Both the position numbers and the translations under genes were made by a program. Shown piece after piece: positions 1,455 to 63,621 of a stretch of 64,000 nucleotides of DNA. Location: positions 76,490 through 140,489 of the forward strand of contig JBEGOD010000055.1 of the NCBI GenBank assembly GCA_041182185.1, given 5' to 3'. Within the stretch, counting starts at the first letter, position 1; every line of letters begins with the position of its first letter. Source of the DNA: Pseudomonadota bacterium (GTDB lineage: Bacteria > Pseudomonadota > Alphaproteobacteria > Sphingomonadales > Sphingomonadaceae). The notes beneath the pieces are model-generated. The model was not told the origin of the DNA, ran no database searches, and was given only the letters and a program-made list of their open reading frames with translations.

Positions 1455-3118
1455 GCCAGGTCGATCCCGTCTTCGCCGCCGTCACCGCGCCAGGCACACC
1501 GTTCGAACTGATCGAACGCGATGGCTTGCTGCAGTTCGCCAATGCCGCCCCGGATCTGGCGCTGATGATCGACCATGCCCGGCGGCATGGCGACAAGACT
1601 TTCCTGGTCGATTTCTCATCCGACGGAGCCGAGCGGCGGCTGACTTTCGAGCAAGTCTTCGCGTGGCGCGATCAGTTGACACCGATGCTGCACATCCGGC
1701 GCGGCGATCGTGTGGCGATCTGCATGCGCAACCGCGCTGAATGGATCGTGGCCTTCATGGCGGTGATCAAGGCCGGCGGGATCGCTGCCCTGCTAAACAG
1801 CCGCGGATCGCCCGCCGAGCTGGTAGCAATGATCGAGGACGTCACGCCAGCGCTGGTCCTGGCCGATAGCCGCCGCGCTGCGCTGATTCGCGAAGGCGGC
1901 TATGCCGGCCGGATGCTGGACCTGACCAAGCCCTTTGACGGGCAGGAGATCGCGCGGCGCGCGGCCGAAGCCCTGCCCGATCCCGGCCTGGCGAAACCGC
2001 TGGACCCGGCCGCGATCCTGTTCACCTCTGGCACGACCGGACGGGTCAAGGGCGCCGTTCTGACGCACCGGAGCCTGATAACCGGGCTGATGCTGATGCA
2101 GCTTTCGGGCGTGATGGTGCTCCACAACATGGCCCGGGCGCGCGGCATTCCAGCTGAGACGCTGATGGCCAGTCTACCGCAGCAGTCGGTCCTGCTGGTC
2201 TATCCGCTGTTCCACATCTCGGGCTTGGGCGCGGCGTTCCTGTCTCCGCTGTTCGCCGGATCAAAAGTCGTGATCATGCGCCGCTGGGACGCGCAGGAAG
2301 CCGTGCGGCTGATCGGGACCGAAAAGATCACCATGTTCTCGGCCGTTCCGACCATGCTGTGGGACATGCTCCACCGGGCAAAGCTGGGCAACGCCGACCT
2401 CTCCTCGCTGCGCAATATTGCCTCGGGCGGGCAGGCCCTGCCGGTCAACCTGCTGGACGAGATCCGTGCGGTCTGCCCGCAGGCGGTCATGGGCACCGGT
2501 TATGGGATGACCGAAGCCTCGGGCTCGCTGGCCCAGGCCGTGGGTGAGGACTTCATCCGCAACCGCGCCTCGGCCGGGCGCGTCCTGCCGCTAGCCCAAG
2601 TTCGGATTGTCGCACCGGACGGCACGATCATGCCAATCGGCCAGAGCGGCGAGATCCAGCTCAGGGGTGCGATGGTCATGGCGGGTTACTGGAACCGCCC
2701 AGAAGAGACCGCCACCGCCTTTAGCGATGATGGCTGGCTGCACACCGGCGATGTCGGTTACGTTGACGACGAGGGCTATATCTTCATCGTCGATCGGGTG
2801 AAGGACATGGTCATTTCCGGCGGCGAGAATATCTATTGCGCCGAAGTCGAGCGGGTCATGGGCGAGATGCCCGGCGTTGGCGAATGCGCCGCTTTCGGCA
2901 TTCCCGACGAGCGTCTGGGCGAACTGCTGGTGGCCGTTGTGCGGGGCGAAAGCCTTGGCGAGCAGGCGGTCAAGGACTGGGTGGGCGAACGACTGGCCCG
3001 CTACAAGACGCCCGGCCGGGTCGTGATCATTTCAGAACCCCTGCCCCGCAACGACGTGGGCAAGGTCAACAAGGCGGCGCTGCGCGCTGCCTGGCCAGCA
3101 TTATCCGGAGAACAATGA
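1451..3118 (+). CDS. Class I adenylate-forming enzyme (long-chain acyl-CoA ligase)
   Basis: FTSGTTGRVKG, GYGMTE, WLHTGDVG, SGGENIY, GKVNK; ATGA overlap with the upstream gene. Confidence 0.9.
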   Translation: MSQVDPVFAAVTAPGTPFELIERDGLLQFANAAPDLALMIDHARRHGDKTFLVDFSSDGAERRLTFEQVFAWRDQLTPMLHIRRGDRVAICMRNRAEWIVAFMAVIKAGGIAALLNSRGSPAELVAMIEDVTPALVLADSRRAALIREGGYAGRMLDLTKPFDGQEIARRAAEALPDPGLAKPLDPAAILFTSGTTGRVKGAVLTHRSLITGLMLMQLSGVMVLHNMARARGIPAETLMASLPQQSVLLVYPLFHISGLGAAFLSPLFAGSKVVIMRRWDAQEAVRLIGTEKITMFSAVPTMLWDMLHRAKLGNADLSSLRNIASGGQALPVNLLDEIRAVCPQAVMGTGYGMTEASGSLAQAVGEDFIRNRASAGRVLPLAQVRIVAPDGTIMPIGQSGEIQLRGAMVMAGYWNRPEETATAFSDDGWLHTGDVGYVDDEGYIFIVDRVKDMVISGGENIYCAEVERVMGEMPGVGECAAFGIPDERLGELLVAVVRGESLGEQAVKDWVGERLARYKTPGRVVIISEPLPRNDVGKVNKAALRAAWPALSGEQ

Positions 3119-3119
3119 C

Positions 3120-3986
3120 ATGGGCATGCCCAAGGACATCGGCATCATCGACTGCATGCTCGGCATTCCCGAGGCGGAAGACCGGTCGGACTGGTTCACG
3201 GCCTTCCGCCCGCTGATCAAGGACGCGCAGACGCTGCAGCAGTTCTCGATGCCGGCCCAGTACATGTTCAAGGACGTACCCCAGACTGGCCATGCCGACG
3301 ACTACGTCAAGTGGACGGTCGACCAGATGGACCAGCACGGCATTGCCAAGGCGCTGGTCGGCTGGAACGAGAACGAAACCTCGCGCCGCGCCAAGGAGCT
3401 CTTTGGCGACCGCTTCTTCTTCGACCTGCCCTGCGATCCCAACAAGGGGATGGAAGAAGTGCGGCGGATCAAGCGGATCCATGCCGAGGTCGGCCTCTCC
3501 GCGATCAGCGTGTTTCCGGCCGGCACGCTTCCGCAGGTGGCGATCAACCACAAGTACATGTTCCCGCTTTATGCCTGTGCGGTCGAGCTGGACATTCCGA
3601 TCTGCCTCAACGTCGGCATTCCGGGCCCGCGGATCCCGATGGAAACCCAGAAGGTCGAACATCTCGACGAAGTCTGCTGGTTCTTCCCGGACCTGAAGAT
3701 CGTGATGCGCCACGGGGCCGAGCCCTGGGAGGACCTGGCCGTGAAGCTCATGTTGAAGTGGCCGAACCTCTATTATTCGACCAGCGCCTTCGCCCCCAAG
3801 CACTATCCCAAGGCGATCATCGACTACGCCAATACCCGCGGCTCCGAGAAGATCATCTACGCCGGCTATTTCCCGATGGGGCTCAGCCTGGAGCGGATCA
3901 TGTCGGACATGGTGAACGTGCCCCTCAAGGACGAGGTTTGGCCCAAGTTCCTGCGCGAGAACGCCGAGCGCGTCTTCAAGCTCTGA
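3120..3986 (+). CDS. Amidohydrolase_2 (LigW/LigJ-like TIM-barrel) family protein with non-canonical metal site
   Basis: IID start strand, FPDLKIVMRHG, KWPNLYYSTSA, KFLRENAERVFKL; RBS GGAG upstream. Confidence 0.8.
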   Translation: MGMPKDIGIIDCMLGIPEAEDRSDWFTAFRPLIKDAQTLQQFSMPAQYMFKDVPQTGHADDYVKWTVDQMDQHGIAKALVGWNENETSRRAKELFGDRFFFDLPCDPNKGMEEVRRIKRIHAEVGLSAISVFPAGTLPQVAINHKYMFPLYACAVELDIPICLNVGIPGPRIPMETQKVEHLDEVCWFFPDLKIVMRHGAEPWEDLAVKLMLKWPNLYYSTSAFAPKHYPKAIIDYANTRGSEKIIYAGYFPMGLSLERIMSDMVNVPLKDEVWPKFLRENAERVFKL

Positions 3987-4028
3987 CCTTCAACCAGACA
4001 AGAACACCGGTTCCCCGGGGAGAATGAC

Positions 4029-5135
4029 ATGACCGAAGTCGCGACCGACGCCCGCACAGCCCCCGTGGCCGTTTGGCAGGTGCTGGAGAAGATGACCAAG
4101 GAAGAGCGTGAGGCCTGGCGCGTCGCGCCGATCGCCAACCGCCCCAGCGCGGAGCAGCGCAACCTCGACATCGGTTTCCCGTTCGGCTGGTACCCCTTCA
4201 TGCTGGCGCAGGACCTGGCCGTGGGCGAGGTCAAGCCGGCGCGCTATTTCGCGCGCGACCTGGCGGTCTGGCGCGGCGAGGACGGCCAGGTCCGGATGAT
4301 CGATGCTTATTGCAAGCACCTCGGCGCCCATCTGGGCCACGGCGGCAAGGTGGCTGGCAACCTGCTGGAATGCCCGTTCCACGCCTGGCGCTATGATGGC
4401 GAGGAAGGGGTGGTCAAAGAGATCCCCTATGCCAAGGCGATCCCGCCGCAGGTGAAGCGCAAGTGCACCCGCACCTGGCACATCCGTGAAGCGAACCAGT
4501 GGCTATGGGTCTGGTATCACCCGGAAGACGCGGCCCCGCAGTACGAAGTGGTGCACCTGCCCGAGGCGAGCGACCCGGCCTGGACGCCCTACGACGTGGT
4601 CGAGTGGCGGATCTTCGGCTCGCTCCAGAACATGGCCGAAAACGGGGTCGATTTCGCTCACTTCAAGTACATCCACGGCACAGCTGAGCTGCCGACATCA
4701 GAGCTTTCTTGGGGCGAATGGGACCGCCAGGGTATTGTCCGCGCCAAGATGGGCACGCCCAAGGGCATGGTCGATGGCGCGATCACCAGCAATTCGATGG
4801 GCCCCGGCCAGGCCTGGGTGCGCTTCACCGGCATTTGCGAAACCCTGCTGGTGGCCTGCATCATCCCGGTCGAACTCGATGAACTTCAGGTGATCTACTG
4901 CTACACCCAGACCAGGGAACAGGCCGAAGGACCGATGGCTGGGCTGGCCCGCGCGATCATCAAGGACGTCAACAAGCAGCTCGACCAGGACAAGGTCGTC
5001 TGGGACCGGATGCGCTACGAACCAAACCCGATCATTTGCGATGGTGACGGCCCGATCCCGCATTTCCGCAAGTTCTACGCGCGCTTCTACGCTGCGAACG
5101 ACGGGGTTCCGTCTTCGCAGCGGCAGGCCCGCTGA
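4029..5135 (+). CDS. Rieske non-heme iron monooxygenase, KshA-like (type A, copy 1)
   Basis: CKH-x17-CPFH Rieske motif, ENGVDFAHFKYIH Fe motif, QDKVVW, CDGDGPI..FRKFY KshA-like C-terminus. Confidence 0.88.
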   Translation: MTEVATDARTAPVAVWQVLEKMTKEEREAWRVAPIANRPSAEQRNLDIGFPFGWYPFMLAQDLAVGEVKPARYFARDLAVWRGEDGQVRMIDAYCKHLGAHLGHGGKVAGNLLECPFHAWRYDGEEGVVKEIPYAKAIPPQVKRKCTRTWHIREANQWLWVWYHPEDAAPQYEVVHLPEASDPAWTPYDVVEWRIFGSLQNMAENGVDFAHFKYIHGTAELPTSELSWGEWDRQGIVRAKMGTPKGMVDGAITSNSMGPGQAWVRFTGICETLLVACIIPVELDELQVIYCYTQTREQAEGPMAGLARAIIKDVNKQLDQDKVVWDRMRYEPNPIICDGDGPIPHFRKFYARFYAANDGVPSSQRQAR

Positions 5136-9765: not shown

Positions 9766-10253
9766 CCACGGTTCAGCTTGACGATCTCGACCGCCAGTTG
9801 ATTGAAGTTCTGGCCCGCGATGCCCGCGTTTCCAACCGCAAGATCGCGGTCGACCTGGGCGTCACCGAAGGCACGGTTCGCGGCCGGATCAAGCGGCTGC
9901 AGCAGGATGGGCTGATTTCCTTCACCGCCATCACCAGCTTCGGCCTGGCAGACTCCGCCCGGATGGCCTTCATCGGGGTCCAGGCCGAGGTCAGCGACGT
10001 GCGCGAAGTCGCGCGCAAGATTGCCGACCTGACCCAGGTCAATGCCGTAATGCTGACCATGGGGCGCTTCAACATCCTGGCGATCTGCTTGTTCAACTCG
10101 CTGGATCACCTGCACGAGGTCGCATCCGACAAGATCCTGGCGATCCCCGGGGTTCATCACGTCGAAACATCGATCGCGGTAAAGACGCTAAAGTACAATG
10201 CGCGAGTGGTGCGCATCACCGAGGTGCAGTCTGCAACCGACGATGCCGACTAA
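9762..10253 (+). CDS. Lrp/AsnC family transcriptional regulator 2
   Basis: LDDLDRQLIEVLARDAR, TVRGRIKRL, TMGRFN, IPGVHHVETSI; ATGA overlap with regulator 1. Confidence 0.9.
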   Translation: MTTVQLDDLDRQLIEVLARDARVSNRKIAVDLGVTEGTVRGRIKRLQQDGLISFTAITSFGLADSARMAFIGVQAEVSDVREVARKIADLTQVNAVMLTMGRFNILAICLFNSLDHLHEVASDKILAIPGVHHVETSIAVKTLKYNARVVRITEVQSATDDAD

Positions 10254-10256
10254 TTT

Positions 10257-10286
10257 CGCGTAACCACGCCATAACAGAATTACGCA
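10257..10286. promoter_or_regulatory. Putative operator YGCGT-N20-RCGCA, site 1
   Basis: CGCGT AACCACGCCATAACAGAATT ACGCA upstream of Rieske gene 10387; same spacing at three other promoters. Confidence 0.65.
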
Positions 10287-36063: not shown

Positions 36064-37089
36064 ATGCAAGAACGGGTACTGGTCACGGGAGCCAATGGCT
36101 TTATTGCCTCGCACATCACCAAGCTGCTGCTGGAGCAGGGATTCGCCGTTCGGGGGACGGTTCGTAATCCGCTGAAGGCAGATACGGTTGGCTTTCTTAA
36201 AGCGTTGCCAGATTCCGGCAATTTAGAGCTTGTTTCGGCGGACTTGAACGATGAAGGCGCATTCTCAAATTATACTGCAGATGTGGATTATGTAATCCAC
36301 ACTGCGAGCCCATTTGTTATCGACGTTGAGGACGTTGAGCGCGACCTAGTCCAACCTGCGGTGCGCGGCACCGTCTCGGCATTGGAGGCTGCAGCGAAGT
36401 CTAGCCGCGTTAAGCGCGTTGTTCTCACTTCTTCCATGGCCGCGATCACCGATGCGCCAGATGGCAGGGTGCTGACCGAAGCGGATTGGAATGAAAAATC
36501 TTCTGTAACCCGCAACCCTTACTACTATTCCAAGACGCAAGCTGAACGTGCCGCCTGGACTTTTACGAAGGAAAATAGCACCGGCTTTGATCTAGTCGTC
36601 ATAAACCCCTTCATGGTTGCCGGACCTTCGCTAAGCACCGGTGTCAGTACGTCCAATCAGCTCTTCATTGACATCGCCAATGGTCAATATCCTGCCTTGA
36701 TGGCACTCAACTGGGGCTTTGTTGACGTTCGAGAGGTAGCCGAGGCCCATGTTCGCGCAATGAAGGCGTCGAACGCCAAAGGGCGCTACATCTGCGCTGC
36801 GGGCAATATGGATATGCACCAAATTACCAATCTAATGAAGTCGGTCGGCGTGCAGGGTAAGCTTCCATCATTCGACATGAGCGGACGCATTGGGACCACA
36901 ACGATGAAGCTTCTCTCAAATTTCCAGCCGAGTGGCATAGGAAGCTACCTCAGAACACATCTTGGAAGCGTTCCGCGGTTTGATAATAGCAAAATCCAGC
37001 GCGATCTCGGCATAGGGTTTCGTGACGTCGAAGAGACAATTTATGATACCGTGCACGACCTCATCGAATGGGGGCATTTGTCTAATTGA
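36064..37089 (+). CDS. Extended SDR, aldehyde reductase / dihydroflavonol-reductase-like
   Basis: TGANGFIA, VRGTVR, HTASP, TSSMAA, YYYSK, FVDVREVA. Confidence 0.9.
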   Translation: MQERVLVTGANGFIASHITKLLLEQGFAVRGTVRNPLKADTVGFLKALPDSGNLELVSADLNDEGAFSNYTADVDYVIHTASPFVIDVEDVERDLVQPAVRGTVSALEAAAKSSRVKRVVLTSSMAAITDAPDGRVLTEADWNEKSSVTRNPYYYSKTQAERAAWTFTKENSTGFDLVVINPFMVAGPSLSTGVSTSNQLFIDIANGQYPALMALNWGFVDVREVAEAHVRAMKASNAKGRYICAAGNMDMHQITNLMKSVGVQGKLPSFDMSGRIGTTTMKLLSNFQPSGIGSYLRTHLGSVPRFDNSKIQRDLGIGFRDVEETIYDTVHDLIEWGHLSN

Positions 37090-37351
37090 ATGTCCAGCTG
37101 CGACCTTTGGTCCGATTTGCTGGGTGCTTTCTCGCCATGCAACCTACGCCTTGGCATCGCCAATGAAACTTGCGATTTTGGGATCATCTATAGAGGCTTC
37201 ATGGCTAAATGCGCGACAATTGACGCGGGACGCCGACTAGGAGTTCCTCACCCGTCGATTTCGAACGGCAGCATATTATGAAAGCGGAAGGAATCCAGAA
37301 CACTAGGGGCTACTCGGATTATATGCCCCACCTCTTTAGGTGTTGCTCTTT

Positions 37352-37777
37352 CTAACTGCTAATATGGCTCTTCAGTTCGATCCCGTTGCCCTCTGGGTCT
37401 GTTAAATAAATGGATGGGGCGAACCCCCGCGCACCAAACCGCATTTTGGGAGGAGCGACGTTGATACCAAAAGCCACCAAATGGGTTCTCAGTGCCTCGA
37501 AGTCGAACGGGCTAATGCATAGGCACAGGTGATCAACATTTTTGCCGGAGCGGTCATCTTGCGATGTCGCCCTCTCTCCGATGTCGTGATTGATGCTCAC
37601 AATGTCGATCATCGTATCACCTGCTCTGAGATGCGTTAGGCCAATCTCGGGCCGATCCCAAACGAGCTCGCAGCCGATAACATTGATATAGAACGCTATT
37701 AGATTAGGTCTGCTCAATGACCGGATAACAACATGGTCAATTGTCGTAAGACTGAATGGCGGCATATACCTTTTCAT
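37352..37777 (-). CDS. VOC (glyoxalase) family protein
   Basis: IDHVVI, NVDHLCL, RFGARG, SIYLTDPEGNGIELK. Confidence 0.85.
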   Translation of the reverse strand: MKRYMPPFSLTTIDHVVIRSLSRPNLIAFYINVIGCELVWDRPEIGLTHLRAGDTMIDIVSINHDIGERATSQDDRSGKNVDHLCLCISPFDFEALRTHLVAFGINVAPPKMRFGARGFAPSIYLTDPEGNGIELKSHISS

Positions 37778-37879
37778 TACCCTGCTTAATTAACAAAATT
37801 CGCGTCACTCATATGGGGGTGTTATAATGCAAAAGCTCTGACCAAAGCCGGGCATCATAATTCGTATTGGTCTGCCATG

Positions 37880-38803
37880 TTATGCCATCAGTCCAAGCGG
37901 GTTTTCGATCAGGTCCTTGAACGCCTGCATCAGTTGCGCGCCGTCGGCGCCATCGATGGCGCGGTGGTCGAAGCTGCCGGTCGCGCTCATCACGCTGGCG
38001 ACGGAAAGCGCACCGTCGACCACATTGGGCCGCAGCTCGCCCGCACCGACAGCCATGATCATCGCTTGGGGCAGATTGATGACGGCGTCGAACTGCTTGA
38101 TCCCGAACATACCGAGGTTGGAGAGGCTGGCTGTGCCACCTTGGTATTCGTGCGGCATCAACTTGCCGTCGCGGGCCTTGTCGGCCAGCGCCTTCATCTC
38201 GTTGCTGATCTGCGCCACGCCCTTGGCCGCGGCATCGACGATGATCGGGGTGATCAGACCTGAGGGAGCCGCCACCGCAACTGAGATGTCTGCGCGGCTG
38301 TACTTGCGCAGTTCATCGCCAGCAAAGCTGACGTTGCACCTGGGCACCCGGATCAGCGCCTTGGCCAGTGCCTTGATCAACAGATCGTTGACCGACACCT
38401 TCACGCCGTCGGCTTCGAGCGCCTTGTTCAGTTCGCCGCGCAGCTTGAGCAGGGCATCAAGCCGCACGTCAACGGTCAGGTAAATGTGCGGAATGGCCTG
38501 CTTAGCCTCGGTCAGGCGGCGGGCGATCGTTTTTCGGACATTGTTCAATTTTTCAGCTTCGTAAGGAATGCCGAAATCCGAAACGGCGGACAGAGCCGCT
38601 TGCGACGGAGTAGCGGACGAAGCAGGGAGCGGTGCCGCGCCGGGCTGTGCAGCCTCGACATCGGCCTTCACTATCCGGCCATTCGGACCGCTGCCCCTGA
38701 CTGCCTTAAGGTCCACGCCCTTCTGATTGGCGATCCGCTTGGCGAGCGGTGAGGCGATCACGCGATTAGGCTGAATCATCCCAGTCTGGTCAGATTTTGG
38801 CAT
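37880..38803 (-). CDS. pdhC: Pyruvate dehydrogenase E2 (dihydrolipoamide acetyltransferase) lacking the N-terminal lipoyl domain
   Basis: Begins at the subunit-binding domain ([17 protein letters not shown]); catalytic DHRAIDG intact; overlaps the pdhB stop, so there is no room for a lipoyl domain. Confidence 0.85.
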
Positions 38804-40145
38804 AGCAGACCTTGCGCACCGCCTCGACGATGCGGGGGGCGTCGATCAGGGCTGCTCGTTCAAGATTCGCTGCGTAAGGCAGCGGCACGTCCTCATCGCA
38901 CACCCTTAGTACCGGCGCGTCGAGATAATCGAACCCGTCTTCCATGCAGATCGCCATGACCTCGGACGCGATCGAACATTGCGGCCAGCCTTCCTCGGCA
39001 ATGATAAGGCGGTTGGTCTTGGCCAGCGAGGTCAAAACGGCCTCACGGTCCAGCGGACGCAGGGTGCGCAGGTCGAGCACTTCGGCATCGATCCCCTCCG
39101 CCGCCAGCGTCTCTGCGGCTTCCAGCGCGAAGCCGACGCCGATTGAGTAGGACACGATCGTCACGTCGCTGCCCTCACGCATGAGCCGCGCCTTGCCGAT
39201 CGGCAGCACGTGGTCGTCGAGTTCCGGAAGTGCGAAGCTGCGGCCATAAACCAGCTCGTTCTCGAGAAACACGACAGGGTCCTCGCTGCGGATCGCAGCC
39301 TTGAGCAGGCCCTTGGCATCCGACGCATCGTACGGCGCGATCACCACAAGTCCGGGCACATTGGAGTACCACGGTGCATAGTTCTGACTGTGTTGCGCGC
39401 CGACGCGGCTGGCCGCACCGTTCGGGCCGCGAAACACAACCGGACAACGCATCTGACCGCCGGACATGTAATTGGTCTTGGCGGCAGAATTGATGATGTG
39501 GTCGATCGCTTGCATGGCGAAGTTGAACGTCATGAACTCCACGACTGGCCGCAAGCCGCCCATCGCCGCACCGGTGCCGATCCCGGCGAAACCGTATTCG
39601 GTAATCGGGGTATCGATCACGCGCTTCGCGCCGAATTCCTCGAGCAGCCCCTGGGTGACTTTGTAGGCGCCCTGGTATTCCGCCACTTCCTCGCCCATCA
39701 CGAAGACGCGGCTGTCTCGGCGCATTTCCTCGGCCATGGCGTCGCGCAGTGCCTCGCGCACGGTCACGGTCTTCATATTTGTGCCAGCCTGAACTTCCGG
39801 ATCGGCCGCAAGAGGAACGGACACCGACCGCTGAGCAGGAGCTGGCTGCACGGGTGCGATCTGCGCCGGCGCTGCGGCCGCTGCCGGAGCAGACACCGCT
39901 TCGCCCTCGCCACCGATCACCGCAATCACGGTGCCGACCTTCACGCCTTCGGTGCCTTCGGGCACAAGAATCTTGCCGATCACCCCTTCGTCGACTGCCT
40001 CGAATTCCATCGTCGCCTTGTCGGTTTCGATCTCGGCGATGATGTCACCCGATTTAACCTCGTCGCCTTCCTTTACGAGCCACTTGGCCAGCGTGCCCTC
40101 TTCCATCGTAGGCGAGAGCGCGGGCATCTTTAGTTCGACGCTCAT
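38790..40145 (-). CDS. pdhB: Pyruvate dehydrogenase E1 beta with N-terminal lipoyl domain
   Basis: [16 protein letters not shown] lipoyl motif; [36 protein letters not shown]. Confidence 0.95.
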
Positions 40146-41200
40146 CAGTAGCTCTCCACCAGTACGTCGGTGTAGAGTTCAGGCATATCTGGCTCCGGCG
40201 AATTTTCTGCAAAATCGGCAGCTTCGTTGACAATGCTGCGAATCTGCTTGTCGATTTCCTTGATGCGATCCTCGGGGACACCGCGCCGGGCAAGCTCGAC
40301 CTTGGCGGCGTCGATCGGATCGTGCTTTTCGCGCATTTCCTGCACTTCCTCGCGCGTGCGATACTTGGCCGGGTCTGACATCGAGTGACCACGATAGCGG
40401 TAAGTGTGCAATTCCATCAGCACCGGACCGTTGCCGTCGCGCACATGCTTGATAGCGACTTCGGCTGCGGCCCGCACTTCGAGCACGTCCATTCCGTTGA
40501 CGTCCATGCCGGGAATGCGGAACGCCGTGCCGCGGCGGTAGAAATGCGTCTCCGCCGAACCGCGCTTGACCGCCGTACCCATGGCATAACCGTTGTTTTC
40601 GACCACGAAGATCACCGGCAGGTTCCACAGCGCAGCCATGTTGAACGCTTCATAGACCTGACCTTGGTTGGAGGCACCATCGCCGAAGTAGGACATGCAG
40701 ATGCCGCCATCATCGCGGTACTTGTGACCGAATGCCAATCCGGCGCCGAGCGGCACCTGCGCACCGACGATGCCGTGGCCTCCGTAGAACTTGCGATCAG
40801 TCGAGAACATGTGCATCGACCCGCCCTTGCCGCGCGAAATACCGGCGGCGCGGCCGGTCAGTTCTGCCATGATGAGCTTCGGATCGATCCCGTAGGCCAG
40901 CATATGCCCGTGATCGCGATAACCGGTGATCACGCTGTCCTTGCCCGCTTCGAGCGCCGACTGCAAACCCACGGCAACAGCTTCCTGACCGATGTAGAGG
41001 TGGCAGAAGCCGCCGATCAGGCCCAGGCCGTACAGCTGCCCGGCCTTCTCCTCGAAACGCCGGATGAGCAGCATCTGCTGATATAACCTCAGCAATTCCT
41101 CATCGCTTGCGTCGTAGCGCGGGTTCGCGACGTAGGCGTCTTGCAGGTTGCGCAGCGGAACACCCCCCGTTTCCGGAAGTGTCTTCGATCTCTTCGGCAT
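40145..41200 (-). CDS. pdhA: Pyruvate dehydrogenase E1 alpha
   Basis: [31 protein letters not shown] ThDP motif, [15 protein letters not shown]. Confidence 0.95.
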
Positions 41201-41214
41201 GGTTGGAGCTCTTG

Positions 41215-41934
41215 TCAGTATTTAATTGTGCCGCCATCGACGACAAGTGTTTGCCCCGTCATGAATGCAGCTTCTTCTCCAGCGAGGAAGAGGATTGCCC
41301 CCAAGACGTCTTTGGGCGTTGCTACCCTTGGGATTGATTGTGAAGCAATAGTTTGCGCTACGACTTCAGGAGCATTTGCCTCAACAACGGCAGTCCCTTC
41401 GGTTCGCGTAAAATTCGGAGCTACGCAGTTTACCGTCAATCCAAATTCACCAAACTCAGAGGAGAGTGATCGAGACATCCCAATAATTGCTCCCTTACTA
41501 GCAATATAGTGAGCCATATTGGGCAACCCCATAAAAAATGTATTCGAAACAATATTTATTATTCGACCCCATTTTTTCTTTTTCATATTTGGAATAGAAG
41601 CTTGGCAGGTGTTAAAAACCGAACTTACATTTGTCGTAATAACCCTATCCCATTCCTCTTTCGTGATCTTTTCGAACGGCTGCATGGGATACACTCCTGC
41701 ATTATTTACAAGAATGTCGATTGGCCCAACTGCCGCTTCGGTATCGCTAAACAATGCCATCACGCTATTTTTGTCACTTACGTCACAATGCGCACGGATC
41801 ATTTCTGCTGATGTGTTGAAGCCGGCGTAAGAGACATCCGCCCCGACAACCGAGAAGCCGCGGGCAGAAAAGGCTTCTGCAATTGCTGCCCCGATACCCT
41901 GAGCACTGCCTGTAACAAGAACCACTTTAGACAT
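41215..41934 (-). CDS. Short-chain dehydrogenase/reductase
   Basis: TGSAQGIG, NNAG, YIASK; AT-rich codon usage. Confidence 0.9.
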   Translation of the reverse strand: MSKVVLVTGSAQGIGAAIAEAFSARGFSVVGADVSYAGFNTSAEMIRAHCDVSDKNSVMALFSDTEAAVGPIDILVNNAGVYPMQPFEKITKEEWDRVITTNVSSVFNTCQASIPNMKKKKWGRIINIVSNTFFMGLPNMAHYIASKGAIIGMSRSLSSEFGEFGLTVNCVAPNFTRTEGTAVVEANAPEVVAQTIASQSIPRVATPKDVLGAILFLAGEEAAFMTGQTLVVDGGTIKY

Positions 41935-41943
41935 GCGCGCCTC

Positions 41944-42717
41944 TCACCAAGCTGTTGTACCGCCATCGACGGCCAAATCAGTGCCGGTTATCCATTTTGC
42001 GTCATCCGATGCGAGAAAGGCTGCGGCGGCGGCCACATCCTCTGGTTGACCAATGCGATCCAACATTATTTTGGATTGCATGGCGCCTGCCCATTCGGGA
42101 TCATCTAGCAGCGCCTTACTCTGGTTCGTCAAAATCAGTCCGGGTGAGATGGAATTGACGCGGATGCCATGTGGCGCGCCCTCCATCGCTAGATGGCGGC
42201 TCATAGCTAGTATTCCCGATTTTGCAGTTGAATGCGCCAAGCCAGGAACAACCTTGTAACAAATATGCGCTGACACAGATGCGGTGTTTATTATAACCCC
42301 TCGACCCTGTTCAATGAATAGAGGCCATATCGACTTACAGGTATGGAAAACTAAATCGACTTCTTCGCGCATCGTCCTCGAAAATGTCTCAAATGACATG
42401 TCCGTGAACCATGCAAAATGCGCCATGGCCGCATTGTTGTATAGTATGTCTATCGCGCCATAAACGGACTTTGCTTTTGCAATAAGCTCGGATACCTGAA
42501 TTGGATCTGTGAGATCGCATTGAATAAACATGGCGTCTGAACCGCCGGCGGAACGAACCGCTTCCAATGCCTCTTCACCACGTGAAGGATCAACATCGCA
42601 GCCTATGACCCTCGCTCCTTCGGCGGCAAAACGGAGGCATGCAGCAAGACCAATGCTACCTCCGCTGCCTGTGATCAAAACCACCTTATCCCGGAGACGA
42701 GAGTGGATGTGGTGCAT
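41944..42717 (-). CDS. Short-chain dehydrogenase/reductase (HxxxK active-site variant)
   Basis: TGSGGSIG, NNAA, NTAS, AHSTAK where YxxxK is expected. Confidence 0.88.
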   Translation of the reverse strand: MHHIHSRLRDKVVLITGSGGSIGLAACLRFAAEGARVIGCDVDPSRGEEALEAVRSAGGSDAMFIQCDLTDPIQVSELIAKAKSVYGAIDILYNNAAMAHFAWFTDMSFETFSRTMREEVDLVFHTCKSIWPLFIEQGRGVIINTASVSAHICYKVVPGLAHSTAKSGILAMSRHLAMEGAPHGIRVNSISPGLILTNQSKALLDDPEWAGAMQSKIMLDRIGQPEDVAAAAAFLASDDAKWITGTDLAVDGGTTAW

Positions 42718-42739
42718 AACTCTCGTCTCCGGGATAATA

Positions 42740-45100
42740 TCAGTAGCGATAGTTCAGGCGGACATACCAAGTTCGCTTGTCGGCATACGCGCGGCCAGCA
42801 TACTCGGGGACGGAACCAAAGAAGCCGGTCGTCCAGTATGTCTTGTTGAACAGGTTATCGACGCCTGCCGTGACTGACATGCTATCATCCTTGGTCGCAT
42901 ACGTCAGACTTGCACTTGCAACCTCGTAGGCATCAACGCGCTCGGAATCGAGGTTAGCTACACCCAAGCCGTTGAAATGCTTGCCGACGCCGTCCATGGA
43001 TGCATTGAACATCAGGCTACCAGCATCCTTCAGTTCGACGCGATAGTTTGCCCCCACGCTGAAGCTGTACTTCGGTGTTGAGACCGGATGGGCATTCAGA
43101 CCAGGCGCATAGCCTGTAAAGTCGGGCGCGAAGATCGGATGAGTGGGATCAGCGCGGGTGTACTCCGCATCGAGAAGACCAAGGTTGCCATAGATCTGAA
43201 GACCCGGAGTTGGTGCCCACGTAATCTCAGCTTCGAGGCCGTTGATCCGCTGATCTGACAACGCCACTGTCTGAGGCGAAATGAGATCGGCGTGATTCTT
43301 GTACTTGCTCGAGAATGCCGTGATGTTGGTCCGTAAGGTGCGGCCAAACCAATCAGCCTTGATACCTGCCTCGAAGGTCTTCACCGTCTCCGGTGCTAGG
43401 AAACGCGACGCTGGAACGGGGTCGGTTGCGCGGTCGCCTTCAAGGTTCCCGGCCTTGTAGCCCGTCGTGTAGGTCGCATAGAGAAGGATATCGCGTGTCG
43501 CCTGCCAGTTCAGGCCCACGCGTGGCGTGAAGCGGCTGAAGTCCTTGCTCGGAAAGACTGGGAAGCCCGGATAGTGGGTCTGCTGGTCCTCGAAGAGCGA
43601 GTCATACCGGACCTTCTTCTTGTCCCAAGTCTGGCGCACGCCTCCCAGCAGGAACAGGTTGTCCAGGACCTCCCATGTGCCGTCGAAATAAAGCGCGTAA
43701 CTCTTCGCGTCCTGGAAAGTGTCCTGGTACGAGCCGCCGAACTTTTCCGTAAAGCCGGGGTGCGCCACGGGAGAGAACTCGACCGGCACACCGATGGTGG
43801 AACCGTATTGCAGCTGCCCCCACTGGTTGCTGAAATAGAACGCCCCAAGGGTATATTTGAAGCGCTCCCCGATAGAACCCGAGAGCTGCAGCTCCTGCGT
43901 GAACTGGTCGTAATCCTCGTCAGTGTCCACGGTGCTGCCGAGTGTGATGCCGAAGATCGTGGAACGGGTGAGGTCGGAACCGAGCTGGGACACGTAATGG
44001 CCATCATAGTGCCGAAAGCCGGAAATCGACTTTAGAGTGCCGATGTCGGTCTCAGCCGAGGCCTTGAACACGATGCCGTAGCCGTCGAAGTTGTGGCCCG
44101 GACGACGCCCGAACCCACCCATATCAGTTAGAGGTTCAAGTGCCCCACGGTTGGCCCCATAGACAGGCGTGAACTTCACCGAGCCGTTTTTGGAAAGAAG
44201 CTGGGCAAGGGACGTCGGATCTGACGGAGCAATCGGGGTCATCAAGTTGGTCCCGTCGTCCTGCTTGAAGACGTCGAGATTAAGTTCAAATTCCACCTTT
44301 TCGTTCGGCTTAAAATAGGTCGCCAGGCGCGCGCCATAGTGCAGAAGCTTCGAAATGTCGTCCTTGATGACCCGGTTTGATGAATCGACCTGCCTCATGA
44401 ATCCGTCGTTCGCAGTGCGGTAGGCGTCGAGCTTAATCGCCAGCTTGTCCTCGATAAGGGGGATGCTGACGTTGCCCTTCACATCGATGCGGTTCCGGCT
44501 GCCAAACGTAACCGAGGCAGACCCTTTGACATCATTGAGGTCTGGCTTACGCGGAACAAATTTGATCGCGCCGACCGTCGCATTGCGCCCATACAGCGTG
44601 CCCTGCGGACCACGCAGTACTTCAACCCGTTCGAAGTCGATCATATCGACATACGCTGCAGCCGTAGACTGGAGATAGATGTCGTCAACGAACACGGCGA
44701 CAGCGTTTTCGGCGTTCCAGTTGTTGTTCGCCCGGCCCGCACCACGCAGGTAGAACTGGGGCGCAGCGAACGAAACGGTGTTCTTTGGTGCCTGAAAATT
44801 GGGAACGATGGACGAGAGATCCATCACGCTCTTAACGTCGCGCTGTTCAAGCTGCTCGCCAGCCACGGCTGAGATCGCGATTGGCACAGCCTGCATGCTT
44901 TCCGAACGCTTACGCGCGGTGACCACGATGTCGACAATGCCCGTGTCTTCGGCCGGTGTCATGCTTGCACTTTCCTGGGGCGCCGCTGTTTGCGCAAATG
45001 CTGGCACTGCAAAAGCAGCAGCGGCAATCACTGCGACGGAGCTTGCCCGCAATAGCGAACGATGAAGTCGCTGAATGGTCTTATGTTGGCTTTGGATCAT
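42740..45100 (-). CDS. TonB-dependent outer-membrane receptor
   Basis: Signal peptide PAFA-Q, DIVVTARKRSE, ERVEVLRGPQGTLYGRN, aromatic C-terminus. Confidence 0.95.
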   Translation of the reverse strand: MIQSQHKTIQRLHRSLLRASSVAVIAAAAFAVPAFAQTAAPQESASMTPAEDTGIVDIVVTARKRSESMQAVPIAISAVAGEQLEQRDVKSVMDLSSIVPNFQAPKNTVSFAAPQFYLRGAGRANNNWNAENAVAVFVDDIYLQSTAAAYVDMIDFERVEVLRGPQGTLYGRNATVGAIKFVPRKPDLNDVKGSASVTFGSRNRIDVKGNVSIPLIEDKLAIKLDAYRTANDGFMRQVDSSNRVIKDDISKLLHYGARLATYFKPNEKVEFELNLDVFKQDDGTNLMTPIAPSDPTSLAQLLSKNGSVKFTPVYGANRGALEPLTDMGGFGRRPGHNFDGYGIVFKASAETDIGTLKSISGFRHYDGHYVSQLGSDLTRSTIFGITLGSTVDTDEDYDQFTQELQLSGSIGERFKYTLGAFYFSNQWGQLQYGSTIGVPVEFSPVAHPGFTEKFGGSYQDTFQDAKSYALYFDGTWEVLDNLFLLGGVRQTWDKKKVRYDSLFEDQQTHYPGFPVFPSKDFSRFTPRVGLNWQATRDILLYATYTTGYKAGNLEGDRATDPVPASRFLAPETVKTFEAGIKADWFGRTLRTNITAFSSKYKNHADLISPQTVALSDQRINGLEAEITWAPTPGLQIYGNLGLLDAEYTRADPTHPIFAPDFTGYAPGLNAHPVSTPKYSFSVGANYRVELKDAGSLMFNASMDGVGKHFNGLGVANLDSERVDAYEVASASLTYATKDDSMSVTAGVDNLFNKTYWTTGFFGSVPEYAGRAYADKRTWYVRLNYRY

Positions 45101-45385
45101 GGAAATCCTCCCCTCCCTTGTTGATTCGCAGTCTCAATGCCTAACCGGCTGGCTGCAATCGCCTATCTTTCGGACGGCGGCAGCTTCGTGTCCTGCCGGC
45201 AGAAAGAAGGAATTTGGTGGAATAGACTGCGAAGTGCACCTCCCGGGTTCGGCCGAAAGATAGGTGCTCGCAATCGCGGCCCTCTGCTTAGGTCTCATTC
45301 ATAAGCATCCGAGTCGGGACCGATTTGCCCATGCAAAACTACCTAAGACTGGGTGTGTCGATGAGTTTGAAGGAGGGATTCGTCC

Positions 45386-46615
45386 ATGGAAGTAGCATTT
45401 TTCATTCCGCCAACTGTCGGTACCCGCGAAGAACTGATGCAAGGTCTAGCGGGTCGTAGAACTGATCTTTATCAAAAGATGCTTGGTGGACTCACTGAAA
45501 TAGCGCAGTTCATGGACGATTTTGGATATTTTGGCATGGGCTTCACTGAGCATCACCTCTCAGTGGAAGGCATGACGCTTTCCAATAGTCCTTCAATGCT
45601 TGGGCTTTATCTAGGACAGCAGACTAAGCACCTGAACTTTGGCGCGCTTGGATATGTTTTGCCCGTCCATGACCCATTGCGGGTCGCGTCGGAAGTGACC
45701 ATGCTGGATCAGATGACGCAGGGCCGAGCATTTGCCGGTTTCGCCCGCGGGGTGCAGACGCGGTGGATTAACACCATGGCGCAGCATCGTTACAGCCTCG
45801 CGGATAACATTACCGATCCTAAGCGTTACGACGACGATCGACGCAAGCTGTTTTACGAGCATCTTGAGATCATTCTTAAAGCTTGGGACAATGATACTTT
45901 TTCGCACAAGGGCGAGTTCTGGACTATTCCAGCGCCAAAAACCGCTTGGCCGGGGCAGCGGATGAGCCGTGAAATGGGTGGGCGTAGTTTAGACGCAGAC
46001 GGAAATCTTGTCGAAGTCGGTGTCGCGCCAGCGATGTACAATCGCAAGCGTCCTTTGATGTTTGAGCCGTTCTCGGTGAGCCACAGTTCCATCGAAACGG
46101 CAGCGTCGAATGGCTTGGTTCCTATCGGGATCATGTGTGATCCCAAAATTGTGTCTGAACAGCTCGATGCGGCTCAGCGAGGATGGGAGAAGGCCGGGGT
46201 TAGCACTAAGCGAGGCGAAAAGGTCGGCTTTGCTCGTTACATGATTGTGGGCGAAACAGACGAAGAAGCGATGGAATTCGCTGAGCTTGCCATGTTTGAG
46301 TGGACCTATTTCTTCGCTCAATTCGGCTTCAACGCCGTGCTGGCCCGGGAAGGCGAAGACTGGAAGAGCATTCCGTCAACCATTCCGGAATTTATTAAGC
46401 GCGGCATTCTCTTCTGCGGCAGCCCGGACACCGTCAACAGGCAGCTCGAAGTTGCGCTGAAAAATATGCCGGTTGAGTACCTTTGGCTGTTTACGGCCAA
46501 CGGCCTGCTCCCTCAGCATATGATGATGAAGCATCTCGATCTTATGTCGCGAAAGGTGTTGCCCAACTTTACGGACAAGATCGGTCCGAATGTGCACCGC
46601 AAAGCTGCCGCCTGA
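45386..46615 (+). CDS. Luciferase-like (LLM) FMN-dependent monooxygenase
   Basis: FTEHH, HDPLRVASE..MLDQMTQGR..GFARG, GSPDTV, KVLPNF. Confidence 0.88.
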   Translation: MEVAFFIPPTVGTREELMQGLAGRRTDLYQKMLGGLTEIAQFMDDFGYFGMGFTEHHLSVEGMTLSNSPSMLGLYLGQQTKHLNFGALGYVLPVHDPLRVASEVTMLDQMTQGRAFAGFARGVQTRWINTMAQHRYSLADNITDPKRYDDDRRKLFYEHLEIILKAWDNDTFSHKGEFWTIPAPKTAWPGQRMSREMGGRSLDADGNLVEVGVAPAMYNRKRPLMFEPFSVSHSSIETAASNGLVPIGIMCDPKIVSEQLDAAQRGWEKAGVSTKRGEKVGFARYMIVGETDEEAMEFAELAMFEWTYFFAQFGFNAVLAREGEDWKSIPSTIPEFIKRGILFCGSPDTVNRQLEVALKNMPVEYLWLFTANGLLPQHMMMKHLDLMSRKVLPNFTDKIGPNVHRKAAA

Positions 46616-59872: not shown

Positions 59873-60919
59873 ATGAAAGCTAACTTCAACGTCGATGCGG
59901 GCGACAAGCTCTACATCCAAGACGTGACGCTGCGCGATGGCATGCACGCCGTACGCCACATGTACGGGATCGACCATGTCCGCGCGATTGCCCAAGCGAT
60001 CGAGGCTTCGGGAGTGGACGCGATCGAAGTGGCCCATGGCGATGGCCTGTCCGGCGCCAGTTTCAACTACGGCTTTGGCGCCCATACCGATTGGGAATGG
60101 CTCGAAGCCGTGGCTGAAGTGCTGGACAAGTGCGTCCTGACCACGCTGATCCTGCCGGGCGTCGGTACGGTCGAAGAATTGCGCCGTGCTTATGACATCG
60201 GTGTCCGCTCGGTTCGCGTGGCAACCCATTGCACCGAGGCCGACGTTTCCAAACAGCACATCGGTATCGCTCGTGACCTTGGCATGGACGTGGCGGGCTT
60301 CCTAATGATGAGCCACATGATCGAGCCGGAAGTGCTCGCCCAGCAGGCTCTCCTGATGGAAAGCTATGGCGCACAGTGCGTTTACGTCACCGACAGCGGC
60401 GGCGCGCTCGACATGGACGGGGTCCGCGCCCGGTTCGAAGCCTATGACCGGGTGCTGAAGCCCGAAACCCAGCGCGGGATGCACGCGCACCACAACCTGT
60501 CGCTTGGCGTGGCCAATTCGATTGTTGCGGCGCAGTGCGGCGCGGTGCGAATCGACGCCAGCCTGACCGGGATGGGCGCGGGCGCGGGCAACGCTCCGCT
60601 GGAAGTGTTCATTGCCGCTGCCGACCGCAAGGGCTGGAACCACGGCTGCGACGTCAACTTGTTGATGGATGCCGCAGAAGACCTCGTGCGTCCGTTGCAA
60701 GACCGCCCGGTTCGCGTCGATCGCGAGACGCTGAGTCTCGGCTATGCGGGTGTCTATTCCAGCTTCCTGCGTCATGCCGAAAAGGCCAGCGAAACTTACG
60801 GAATCGACACGCGCGAAATCCTGCTCGAACTTGGCCGCCGCAAGATGGTTGGCGGGCAGGAAGACATGATCGTCGATGTCGCGCTTGATATGCTGAAGTC
60901 TGAGCCCCTTGGGGCCTAA
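59873..60919 (+). CDS. dmpG: 4-hydroxy-2-oxovalerate aldolase
   Basis: [47 protein letters not shown]. Confidence 0.95.
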
Positions 60920-61849: not shown

Positions 61850-62311
61850 ATGCAAACATACGACGACCCGCAGGTGCTTGCGCGGCTTGCCGCGCTGAAA
61901 ACTATGACCGTGAAGGAGCTCAAGGAACAATGGGCTTCGCTGATGGGGACCGAGGCGCCGAACAACAGCAGCCCATACATGATCCAGCGCCTGTCCTAAC
62001 GGATCCAGGAGCTGGCATGGGGCGGGATGAACAAGGCCTTACTGCGCAATCTCGACGCCCTGGCCGATGAATACGAAGGCAAGAAAGTCCGGAAATCGGT
62101 AATTGCCGATCCTCGCAACCCGATTATTGGCACACGCCTGATCCGTGAGTGGGACGGGATCGAGCATACCGTGACGGTGATGAAGGATGGGTTCGACTGG
62201 CAAGGACGGCGGTTCAAATCACTGTCAGCGGTGGCGAGAACGATCACCGGCACACGCTGGAACGGTTATCGCTTCTTTGGCCTTCGCCCGGCCGAAGGCG
62301 GTGCACGATGA
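61850..62311 (+). pseudogene. DUF2924 family protein interrupted by in-frame TAA
   Basis: MQTYDDPQVLARLAALK...IQRLS*RIQELAWGG...GTRLIREW...SLSAVARTITGTRWNGYRFFGL; TAA at 61997-61999. Confidence 0.8.
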
Positions 62312-63621
62312 GCGACCTGTCTCCTCGCCGCCGCCTGCGCTGCGCGATCTACACCCGCAAGTCCTCCGAGGAAGGGCTCGAGCAGGAGTTCAACAGCCTC
62401 GACGCACAGCGCGAGGCCTGCGAGGCCTATATTGCCAGCCAGCGCGCTGAGGGCTGGATTGCAATGCGCGAGGCCTATGATGATGGCGGCTTCTCGGGTG
62501 GCACGCTCGAGCGGCCGGGCCTTAGGAACCTGCTCGACGACATCGAGGCCGGACTTGTCGACATCATCGTGGTCTACAAGATCGACCGGCTCTCCCGCTC
62601 GCTGATGGACTTCGCCAAGCTTGTCGAGGTGTTCGACCGGCATCAGGTGACGTTCGTCTCGGTGACGCAGGCCTTCAACACCACCACCTCGATGGGCCGA
62701 CTGACCTTGAACGTCCTGCTGTCATTTGCGCAGTTCGAGCGCGAAGTGACCGGCGAGCGCATCCGCGACAAAATCGCGGCCTCACGCGCCAAGGGCATGT
62801 GGATGGGCGGTTTTATTCCGTGGGGGTACGATGTCATCGATCGAAAGCTGGTGATCAATCCATCTGAAGCAGCGAGCATCCGATACCTGTTCGAGCGGTT
62901 CGTCGAACTGGAATCCGCGACCAAGCTTGCCCGCGAGGTTGTTCGACAAGGGATCGTCAACAAGCGGGGCCGCGCCATCGACAAAGGTTTCCTATACAAG
63001 CTGTTCCGCAACAGGGTCTACCTGGGCGAAGCCGTGCACAAAGGCACCAGCTATCCCGGCGAACATGAGGCCATCATAGACCAACCGCTCTGGGGCAAGG
63101 TCCACGCCATCCTTGAGGTGAATTACCGCCAGAGGGCGATGAAAACCCGCACACAGACACCCTACTTGCTGAAGGGGTTGATGTTCACGGGCACAGGTGC
63201 TGCCATGACGCCCAGCCACACGCGTAAAGGAGAGCGGATCTACCGTTACTACGTCTCTATGGATGCTATCCATAATCGCGCCGGGGAGGATGGGCCGTTG
63301 CCGCGACGCCTCAATGCAGGGATGGTTGAGGGCGTGGTAATTCAAGAACTGCGGCGGTTGCTGGTATCTCCTGCCATCACGGCTCAAGCCATTAAGGCCG
63401 TCCGTCAGTGCCAGCCGGACATTGATGAGAATGACGTGATATCAGCCCTCACGGGGTTCGAGCAGCTCTGGGAAACTCTATTCCCGGCTGAGCAAGCGCG
63501 CATCGCGAGGCAGCTCATTCGTAAGGTCACGGTGAATGATAACGGTCTTGCCGTTGACCTGCGCACCGACGGTCTGGGCCCCATTGTTCATGATATGCTG
63601 GCTCCGAGGATGGCGGCATGA
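62308..63621 (+). CDS. Large serine recombinase (resolvase + recombinase domains)
   Basis: CAIYTRKSS catalytic Ser, DGGFSG, KIDRLSRS, FAQFERE, GGFIPWGY, YRYY; ATG 62308. Confidence 0.93.
   Translation: MSDLSPRRRLRCAIYTRKSSEEGLEQEFNSLDAQREACEAYIASQRAEGWIAMREAYDDGGFSGGTLERPGLRNLLDDIEAGLVDIIVVYKIDRLSRSLMDFAKLVEVFDRHQVTFVSVTQAFNTTTSMGRLTLNVLLSFAQFEREVTGERIRDKIAASRAKGMWMGGFIPWGYDVIDRKLVINPSEAASIRYLFERFVELESATKLAREVVRQGIVNKRGRAIDKGFLYKLFRNRVYLGEAVHKGTSYPGEHEAIIDQPLWGKVHAILEVNYRQRAMKTRTQTPYLLKGLMFTGTGAAMTPSHTRKGERIYRYYVSMDAIHNRAGEDGPLPRRLNAGMVEGVVIQELRRLLVSPAITAQAIKAVRQCQPDIDENDVISALTGFEQLWETLFPAEQARIARQLIRKVTVNDNGLAVDLRTDGLGPIVHDMLAPRMAA

Follow-up and report, generated by a model that had tools for sequence, protein, structure and literature searches.

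A pyruvate dehydrogenase operon of a freshwater sphingomonad encodes a conserved E2 without a lipoyl arm behind a lipoyl-bearing E1β

To our knowledge, textbooks invariably depict 2-oxo acid dehydrogenase complexes with the swinging lipoyl arm mounted on E2. A lipoyl domain on the β subunit of E1 is known in Alphaproteobacteria from Zymomonas. It is part of the NCBIfam model for this subunit (NF008854) and appears in the title of Neveling et al (1999), as cited in PMC7873978. An arm residing on a different polypeptide has experimental precedent, because only PdhD (E3) was found lipoylated in the pyruvate dehydrogenase (PDH) of Mycoplasma hyopneumoniae (PMC7873978), and because the arm-less E2 domain of actinobacterial OdhA is served in trans by the arm of AceF (PMC10415282). 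Full-text searches of the literature returned no description of an E2 lacking the lipoyl domain in combination with an E1β that bears one, and no test of the function of the E1β lipoyl domain was found in the literature. Such a pair is encoded by a PDH operon on the stretch of DNA analyzed here (64,000 nucleotides, hereafter the window; contig JBEGOD010000055.1, positions 76,490 to 140,489), which derives from the metagenome-assembled genome (MAG) of a freshwater sphingomonad (G000; 2.8 Mb in 252 contigs, 86% completeness).

A preliminary description of the window, made from its letters alone, had reported a minus-strand operon of pdhA, a lipoyl-bearing pdhB, and a gene for a 307-residue E2 without an arm (pdhC′, encoding E2′), and this observation was confirmed. 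Open reading frames and domain profiles agree with it regarding the gene order, the overlap with the pdhB stop codon, the DHRAIDG motif, the lack of an E3 gene, and the co-orientation behind a TonB-dependent receptor and two genes for short-chain dehydrogenases/reductases (SDR); its statement that alphaproteobacterial E1β carries a lipoyl domain is likewise borne out by NF008854 and by the title mentioned above. In the product of pdhC′, the subunit-binding domain (E3_binding, PF02817) occupies residues 15–50 and matches profile positions 1–36 of 36 (62.5 bits). It is followed by the catalytic domain (2-oxoacid_dh, PF00198; residues 81–306, 254.9 bits) with DHRAIDG at residues 279–285 and an intact SNLG serine motif. 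A Pfam search of the protein detected no lipoyl domain (PF00364), and because pdhB ends at 38790, no frame upstream of pdhC′ could encode one. The ATG start codon at 38803 overlaps the pdhB stop codon (38792–38790) by 14 nt; another ATG in the same frame (M9) is located at 38779. The match to the PDH E2 model TIGR01349 covers only profile positions 133–436 of 437, and the whole-protein score of 378 bits is under the cut-off of 445. Two short NCBIfam acetyltransferase models (308 and 347 positions), which have no room for a lipoyl domain and were taken to represent arm-less E2 proteins, were also matched below their cut-offs (NF008815, 138.9 versus 378 bits; NF011416, 179.6 versus 429 bits), E2′ resembling them solely in its architecture. 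The closest solved relatives of E2′ are the 60-mer cores of mitochondrial PDC-E2. No E3 gene was found 3′ of pdhC′ or nearby, the next gene downstream encoding a protein of the VOC/glyoxalase fold.

The preliminary description had offered, as one of two readings, a decaying capture, i.e., that the E2 fragment is the remnant of a rearrangement and drifts toward loss. The truncation, however, is neither unique to this strain nor does it evolve neutrally. The same junction between pdhB and pdhC′ was found in three metagenome contigs (L015–L017; 99.3–99.7% identical) and in the MAG of an uncultured member of the Sphingomonadaceae (G196; contigs L019/L028; 86% nucleotide identity), which also carries its own full-length E2; being present in independent assemblies, it is no assembly artefact. 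Between the window and L019, the non-synonymous (dN) and synonymous (dS) divergence of the whole pdhC′ gene was 0.051 and 0.54, respectively, corresponding to a dN/dS of 0.09 (bootstrap 0.06–0.14). The ratio was 0.063 for the catalytic domain (68 synonymous and 18 non-synonymous differences), 0.16 for the binding domain, and 0.062 for the C-terminal half of pdhB. The value for pdhC′ is no higher than that of housekeeping E2 pairs, for which dN/dS of the catalytic domain ranged from 0.11 to 0.35. Because both lineages share the 37-nt filler sequence found at the junction (see below), their divergence postdates the truncation, and the shared filler also speaks against separate, recent truncations. 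All copies are free of stop codons and frameshifts, the catalytic His/Asp and SNLG motifs are preserved, and the binding domain is conserved. Purifying selection has maintained the arm-less E2 in its two domains, which implies that the binding domain still recruits E1 and/or E3 and that the catalytic domain still transfers acetyl groups to CoA.

What could be held in favor of decay are replacements at sites invariant in close relatives (P244L, Y260N, and T103A), the upstream IS66-like insertion together with G304R in L017, and the narrow spread (one of the 400 family genomes sampled, and one match to a relaxed junction pattern in 185,579 species genomes). P244L is the INLPQ motif that the preliminary description had read as a hint of drift. 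It is confined to the sublineage of the window, its sister lineage keeping INPPQ, and the position varies among E2 paralogues, e.g., INRPE in the E2 on contig C184 of the same genome, which argues against such an interpretation. Given the low dN/dS accumulated since the junction arose, decay appears very improbable.

If E2′ is functional, its acetyl groups would have to come from an arm located elsewhere, for which the adjacent E1β is the candidate favored here. The product of pdhB matches NF008854 over the full length (residues 1–448, profile positions 1–463 of 464) and comprises, besides the lipoyl domain (PF00364, residues 4–77), Transket_pyr (PF02779, 126–299) and Transketolase_C (PF02780, 317–439) domains; the lipoyl-lysine motif is ETDKATME, with K43 as the lysine. 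The protein is 87% identical to the housekeeping PdhB of the same genome (contig C11). Its lipoyl domain shares 66 of 78 residues (85%) with that of the closest full-length E2, and the two agree in the sequence surrounding the lipoyl lysine; it can therefore be expected to be recognized by E1, E2, and E3. From the second accessory lineage, a protein ending VCYAKV (P0130), the longest contig of which equals that of P0247 in length (27,659 bp), is taken to be the E1β of another member of the second group of arm-less sequences (see below). Its lipoyl domain shares 73 of 78 residues with that of the window, with ETDKATME intact, so that both accessory lineages retain the E1β lipoyl domain. This domain is probably lipoylated and the working arm, and pyruvate would be the substrate of the accessory complex.

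The operon is considered accessory because the host genome also holds normal pdhAB genes (pdhB on C11), a full-length pdhC on C40 that includes the lipoyl domain (82% identical and followed by lpd), and a second lpd on C199, i.e., two lipoamide dehydrogenases in total. Our preferred interpretation, to which we assign a probability of roughly 0.6, is that it encodes a functional, streamlined accessory PDH module in which the arm on E1β does the shuttling and E3 is provided by the host. E2′, consisting of binding and catalytic domains, would still build the acetyltransferase core, and its binding domain would dock both E1 (α2β2) and host E3. The E1β lipoyl domain, on its Ala/Pro linker of ∼45 residues, would be reductively acetylated at the E1 site, hand the acetyl group to the E2′ site, and then be re-oxidized by host Lpd. 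The proposal is that the E2 arm became dispensable because the E1β arm renders it redundant in this family.

The E2 arm has been lost independently at least twice more. The conjugative plasmid pSHV1 of the cultured strain Sphingobium herbicidovorans MH (NZ_CP020540.1, 70739–74162; L037, 6863–10286) carries pdhA, pdhB, and an arm-less E2 gene. Its pdhB encodes 462 residues including a lipoyl domain and is followed, 5 nt on, by an intact gene for a 316-residue E2 (binding and catalytic domains, DHRVIDG); a LysR gene but no E3 gene comes after it. This E2 is 63% identical to E2′ of the window, 67% identical to the full-length E2 of plasmid pSWIT01, and 72–74% identical to full-length E2 of Sphingobium, including that of its own host. 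Neither its junction nor its E2 lineage is that of the window, and the arm was therefore lost in a separate event. The PLSDB gene table lists no feature at the position of the arm-less E2 of pSHV1, and the genome paper (PMC5737581) does not mention it.

The second case, the family f136, was found in a class-wide alphaproteobacterial sample and is represented by three genomes (G535, G656, and G753; 1.8–1.9 Mb, 99–100% complete). Each has a single PDH-type E2, an open frame of 299–306 residues without an arm, which in G535 and G656 lies directly behind a 459–460-residue E1β with a lipoyl domain. Between two congeneric species, dN of this E2 was 0.020 and dS 0.83 (dN/dS 0.024). Only two E2 catalytic domains are encoded per genome, the second in a 405–414-residue protein with its own arm, which is presumably SucB. 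Because these near-complete genomes are without a full-length PDH E2, the arm-less layout can apparently stand alone, and f136 is the strongest, albeit indirect, support for the notion that the E1β arm suffices. The other reading of the preliminary description, a natural minimal complex in which E1β performs all acyl shuttling, is thus indirectly supported by the selection on both E2′ domains, the recurrence on pSHV1, and the sole PDH of f136, while activity of such a complex is a prediction from sequence.

Several points weigh against this interpretation. Lipoylation of E1β and activity of the complex are predictions of the model. In f136, the arm of SucB could act in trans. In the window's host, the full-length E2, with its 82% identical core, could co-assemble with E2′ and supply the arms. 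Carried further, this last point becomes an alternative in which E2′ and the accessory E1 work only when mixed with host E2, both E2 proteins residing in one core like E2 and E3BP in mitochondria, with the host E2 arms being the ones that count and the E1β arm being incidental. Such hybrid complexes are conceivable, as a full-length E2 is present in every one of the three hosts of accessory operons (G000, G196, and S. herbicidovorans), as the E2 cores are 78–82% identical, and as OdhA is an arm-less E2 domain living on the arms of another protein (PMC10415282). However, the cassette has been transferred from one genus to another (g1 and g111), E2′ is more similar to other Novosphingobium E2 (91% identity) than to the own E2 of either host (78–82%), and f136 lacks a full-length PDH E2 altogether. 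We therefore regard obligate hybrid complexes as unlikely, though clearly less so than decay.

Also to be held against the E1β-arm model is the substitution pattern of E2′. In the protein tree, the arm-less sequences and two full-length sequences form one clade (SH-aLRT 90) with an unresolved three-way split, so that the arm-less sequences of this clade may have a single origin. Root-to-tip length is 0.074–0.099 for the arm-less sequences versus 0.034–0.078 for neighboring full-length ones, and each arm-less lineage has ∼8 replacements at catalytic-domain positions that show little or no variation among 110 full-length relatives (for the window including T103A, L136V, K155R, P244L, and Y260N). 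Replacements and branch lengths together suggest a somewhat changed or relaxed constraint. Differences in pdhC′ between the window and L015–L017 are mostly non-synonymous (1–4 versus 0–1), but these counts are very small. Overall, the sequences point to a modest acceleration of the arm-less E2, not to decay.

The junction itself bears on how the module was assembled. In the eight housekeeping genes compared, pdhB ends ...GTCTGCTAT CGN TGA/TAG (VCYR*). In the window, the 37-nt filler comes directly after TGCTAT, and homology to pdhC restarts behind it. The filler takes the place of the last housekeeping pdhB codon and provides three new codons plus the stop (AKI*) as well as both candidate start codons of E2′; it is kept in the second lineage (L019) save for a few base changes. 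The GC content of this sequence is 46% (38765–38801). Two other explanations of the region were rejected. A programmed frameshift fusing pdhB to pdhC′, the frame of which is +1 relative to pdhB, would require a slippery or RF2-like site, and none known is present at AAA ATC TGA C. The N-terminal KSDQTGM is not a remnant of ETDKATM, because pdhC′ shares its first five codons with the end of pdhB and because the filler is unlike any housekeeping sequence.

In a sample of 400 genomes from the family, matches to the pdhB 3′ end and to the start of the pdhC binding domain were almost always separate and tens of kb apart, which means that housekeeping pdhAB and pdhC are unlinked in the Sphingomonadaceae sampled; the sole exception was G196. 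A search with a degenerate junction pattern gave no match among species genomes in its stricter form (AAAATC) and, when relaxed by one base, a single MAG among 185,579. The GC content of the pdh genes (0.60–0.63) exceeds that of SDR1 (0.46) and the VOC gene (0.50) next to them, which indicates insertion of high-GC, housekeeping-derived genes into an island of lower GC. E1α and E1β are 85–95% identical to housekeeping PDH E1 of Novosphingobium. Taken together with the similarity of E2′ to other Novosphingobium E2, this makes Novosphingobium-like housekeeping genes the most likely source of the module, which would have been captured by a catabolic island of lower GC.

A protein search retrieved arm-less relatives with the same N-terminus from several sources, one group being 99% identical to E2′ and a second one ∼90% (P0005–P0010, P0012, and P0247). 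Seven further candidates (P0071, P0011, P0014, P0017, P0022, P0036, and P0039) were dismissed as they look like truncated calls of full-length genes, and two loci (L047 and L048, from G402 and G575) were not usable as arm-less examples because they are cut by contig ends; no conclusion draws on genomes G432 or G606. The ESM Atlas contains at least 30 clusters of ∼300-residue proteins with binding and catalytic domains but no lipoyl domain, some of which may be fragments. For two proteins of 376–383 residues (P0322 and P0342), the calls comprise two binding domains but lack a lipoyl domain, where a mis-called start is possible; tandem subunit-binding domains (in the order lipoyl, binding, binding, catalytic) also occur in some sphingomonad E2 (L043 from G224, L041, and L042). 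What contig L017 has in common with the window is limited to five genes, SDR1 through VOC (window 37324–41993). In its flanks (10074–10273 and 2463–4685), an IS66-like transposase gene cuts SDR2 on one side, and katG is found on the other, downstream. G304R of its E2′ affects a nearly invariant site, and the L017 copy may be on its way out.

Table 1. Features of the accessory PDH operon and its surroundings in the window, and loci of the arm-less E2 in family f136 (coordinates of the respective locus)
Feature	Coordinates	Strand	Evidence and remarks
TonB-dependent receptor	42740..45100	-	Pfam Plug and TonB_dep_Rec_b-barrel; heads the co-oriented gene string
SDR2 oxidoreductase, 257 aa	41944..42717	-	Pfam adh_short_C2; under the cut-off of all NCBIfam equivalogs
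SDR1 oxidoreductase, 239 aa, GC 0.46	41215..41934	-	SDR; belongs to the cassette common to window and L017
pdhA, PDH E1α, 351 aa, GC 0.60	40145..41200	-	TIGR03182, 493.7 bits versus cut-off 393.85
pdhB, PDH E1β with N-terminal lipoyl domain, 451 aa	38790..40145	-	NF008854, 792.7 bits versus cut-off 454
E1β lipoyl domain (residues 4-77) and Ala/Pro linker of ~45 residues	39915..40136	-	PF00364, 75 bits
Junction filler, 37 nt, 46% GC	38765..38801	-	Alignment to 8 housekeeping pdhB 3′ ends and L019
pdhC′, lipoyl-less E2, 307 aa	37880..38803	-	Binding domain 38761-38654; catalytic domain 38563-37886 with DHRAIDG
VOC/glyoxalase-fold protein, 141 aa, GC 0.50	37352..37777	-	Pfam Glyoxalase, 31 bits; last gene of the shared cassette; kept in L015 and L017
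Arm-less E2 locus of f136 (G535)	L044 2558-4838
Arm-less E2 locus of f136 (G656)	L045 2435-4821
Arm-less E2 locus of f136 (G753)	L046 2165-3067

The six minus-strand genes from the TonB-dependent receptor to E2′ are spaced by 22, 9, 14, −1, and −14 nt, and the VOC gene, as the seventh, starts 102 nt past the end of E2′ (Table 1). Scanning 37000–45500 for promoters and terminators yielded nothing above chance. The pdh genes are presumably cotranscribed with the receptor and SDR genes. The surrounding island also encodes a luciferase-like monooxygenase, a hydrolase, a LigB-type dioxygenase, esterases, an OYE, a MalT-type regulator, a hydratase/DmpF/DmpG set, and a serine recombinase. Across the island (36000–58000), GC falls from ∼0.64 to ∼0.55, and the large serine recombinase is encoded near the right end (62149–63621). 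Among proteins of solved structure, SDR1 is closest to (S)-1-phenylethanol dehydrogenase (2ew8; E 2e-55), a resemblance that would fit a pathway for aryl ketones or benzylic alcohols in the island. The preliminary description had suggested that the complex was recruited to drain pyruvate from DmpG. DmpG is encoded at 59873–60919, on the opposite strand and 19 kb from the pdh operon; a functional link is plausible but a guess. The context also differs between copies, the L017 cassette being located elsewhere and the equivalent operon of pSHV1 not lying beside meta-cleavage genes. Extra PDH capacity on catabolic DNA nevertheless seems to be a recurring theme, since plasmids pCAR3 and pSWIT01 are annotated with second PDH sets.

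The neighborhood raises the possibility that the chemistry has changed, i.e., that E1 and E2′ act on an acyloin, a diketone, or another 2-oxo acid derived from the SDR reactions, comparable to acetoin dehydrogenase. The pdh genes are closely coupled to the two SDR genes (gaps of 9–14 nt), SDR1 and the VOC gene are the only non-pdh genes that move with the cassette, and SDR1, which accompanies the pdh genes in L017, resembles 1-phenylethanol dehydrogenase. Against this, E1α and E1β both pass the PDH equivalog cut-offs and are close to the housekeeping E1 of Novosphingobium, and the pSHV1 and f136 versions are without SDR partners. The only match to an acetoin dehydrogenase E2 model was NF011457, on the lipoyl domain of pdhB, with 76 bits versus a cut-off of 307. 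A changed substrate is therefore doubtful, ranking well below the hybrid alternative in our estimation, though above decay.

Extending the E1β-arm model beyond this operon, we lean slightly toward the view that, in Alphaproteobacteria, the lipoyl domain on E1β is fully competent as an arm, and that the E2 arm is dispensable and has been shed repeatedly. If true, the rule that the arm belongs to E2 fails for a whole class of complexes. Whether all three active sites can be served by an arm on the peripheral E1 is tested most cleanly, among the systems available, by natural complexes with an arm-less E2 under strong purifying selection, and the answer would constrain models of active-site coupling and complex geometry. 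The window copy exemplifies a module that was built from two unlinked housekeeping loci, moves with catabolic islands, and would need the host only for E3. With the copy on pSHV1, the question can be put to the test in a strain that is both cultured and sequenced.

Compared with known systems, an arm-less E2 paired with an armed E1β is probably best regarded as a variant of the Zymomonas-type PDH, of which the window holds one accessory, mobile instance. It shares with that type (pdhA, lipoyl-bearing pdhB, and a separate pdhC-lpd; NF008854) the heterotetrameric E1 with a lipoyl domain on E1β. There, however, E2 keeps its lipoyl domain, whereas E2′ is arm-less, encoded directly behind pdhB, and has no attached E3 gene. 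A second PDH set on mobile catabolic DNA is also present on pCAR3 of Novosphingobium sp. KA1 (L035, 5988–11114), where pdhC-lpdA-pdhA-pdhB adjoin ligAB-type ring-cleavage genes and the products are 83–86% identical to those of the window, and on pSWIT01 of Rhizorhabdus wittichii RW1 (L036, 5903–11055; pdhA-pdhB-pdhC-lpd); in contrast to the window, both encode a full-length E2 (418–420 residues) and their own lpd. With M. hyopneumoniae PDH, the operon has in common that a lipoyl domain resides on a subunit other than E2, but there the arm is on E3 instead of E1β, and the lineage is unrelated. OdhA/KGD resembles E2′ in that its E2 catalytic domain lacks a lipoyl domain; unlike E2′, that domain is fused to E1o, is a succinyltransferase, receives its arms from E2p (AceF), and is not accompanied by a subunit-binding domain.

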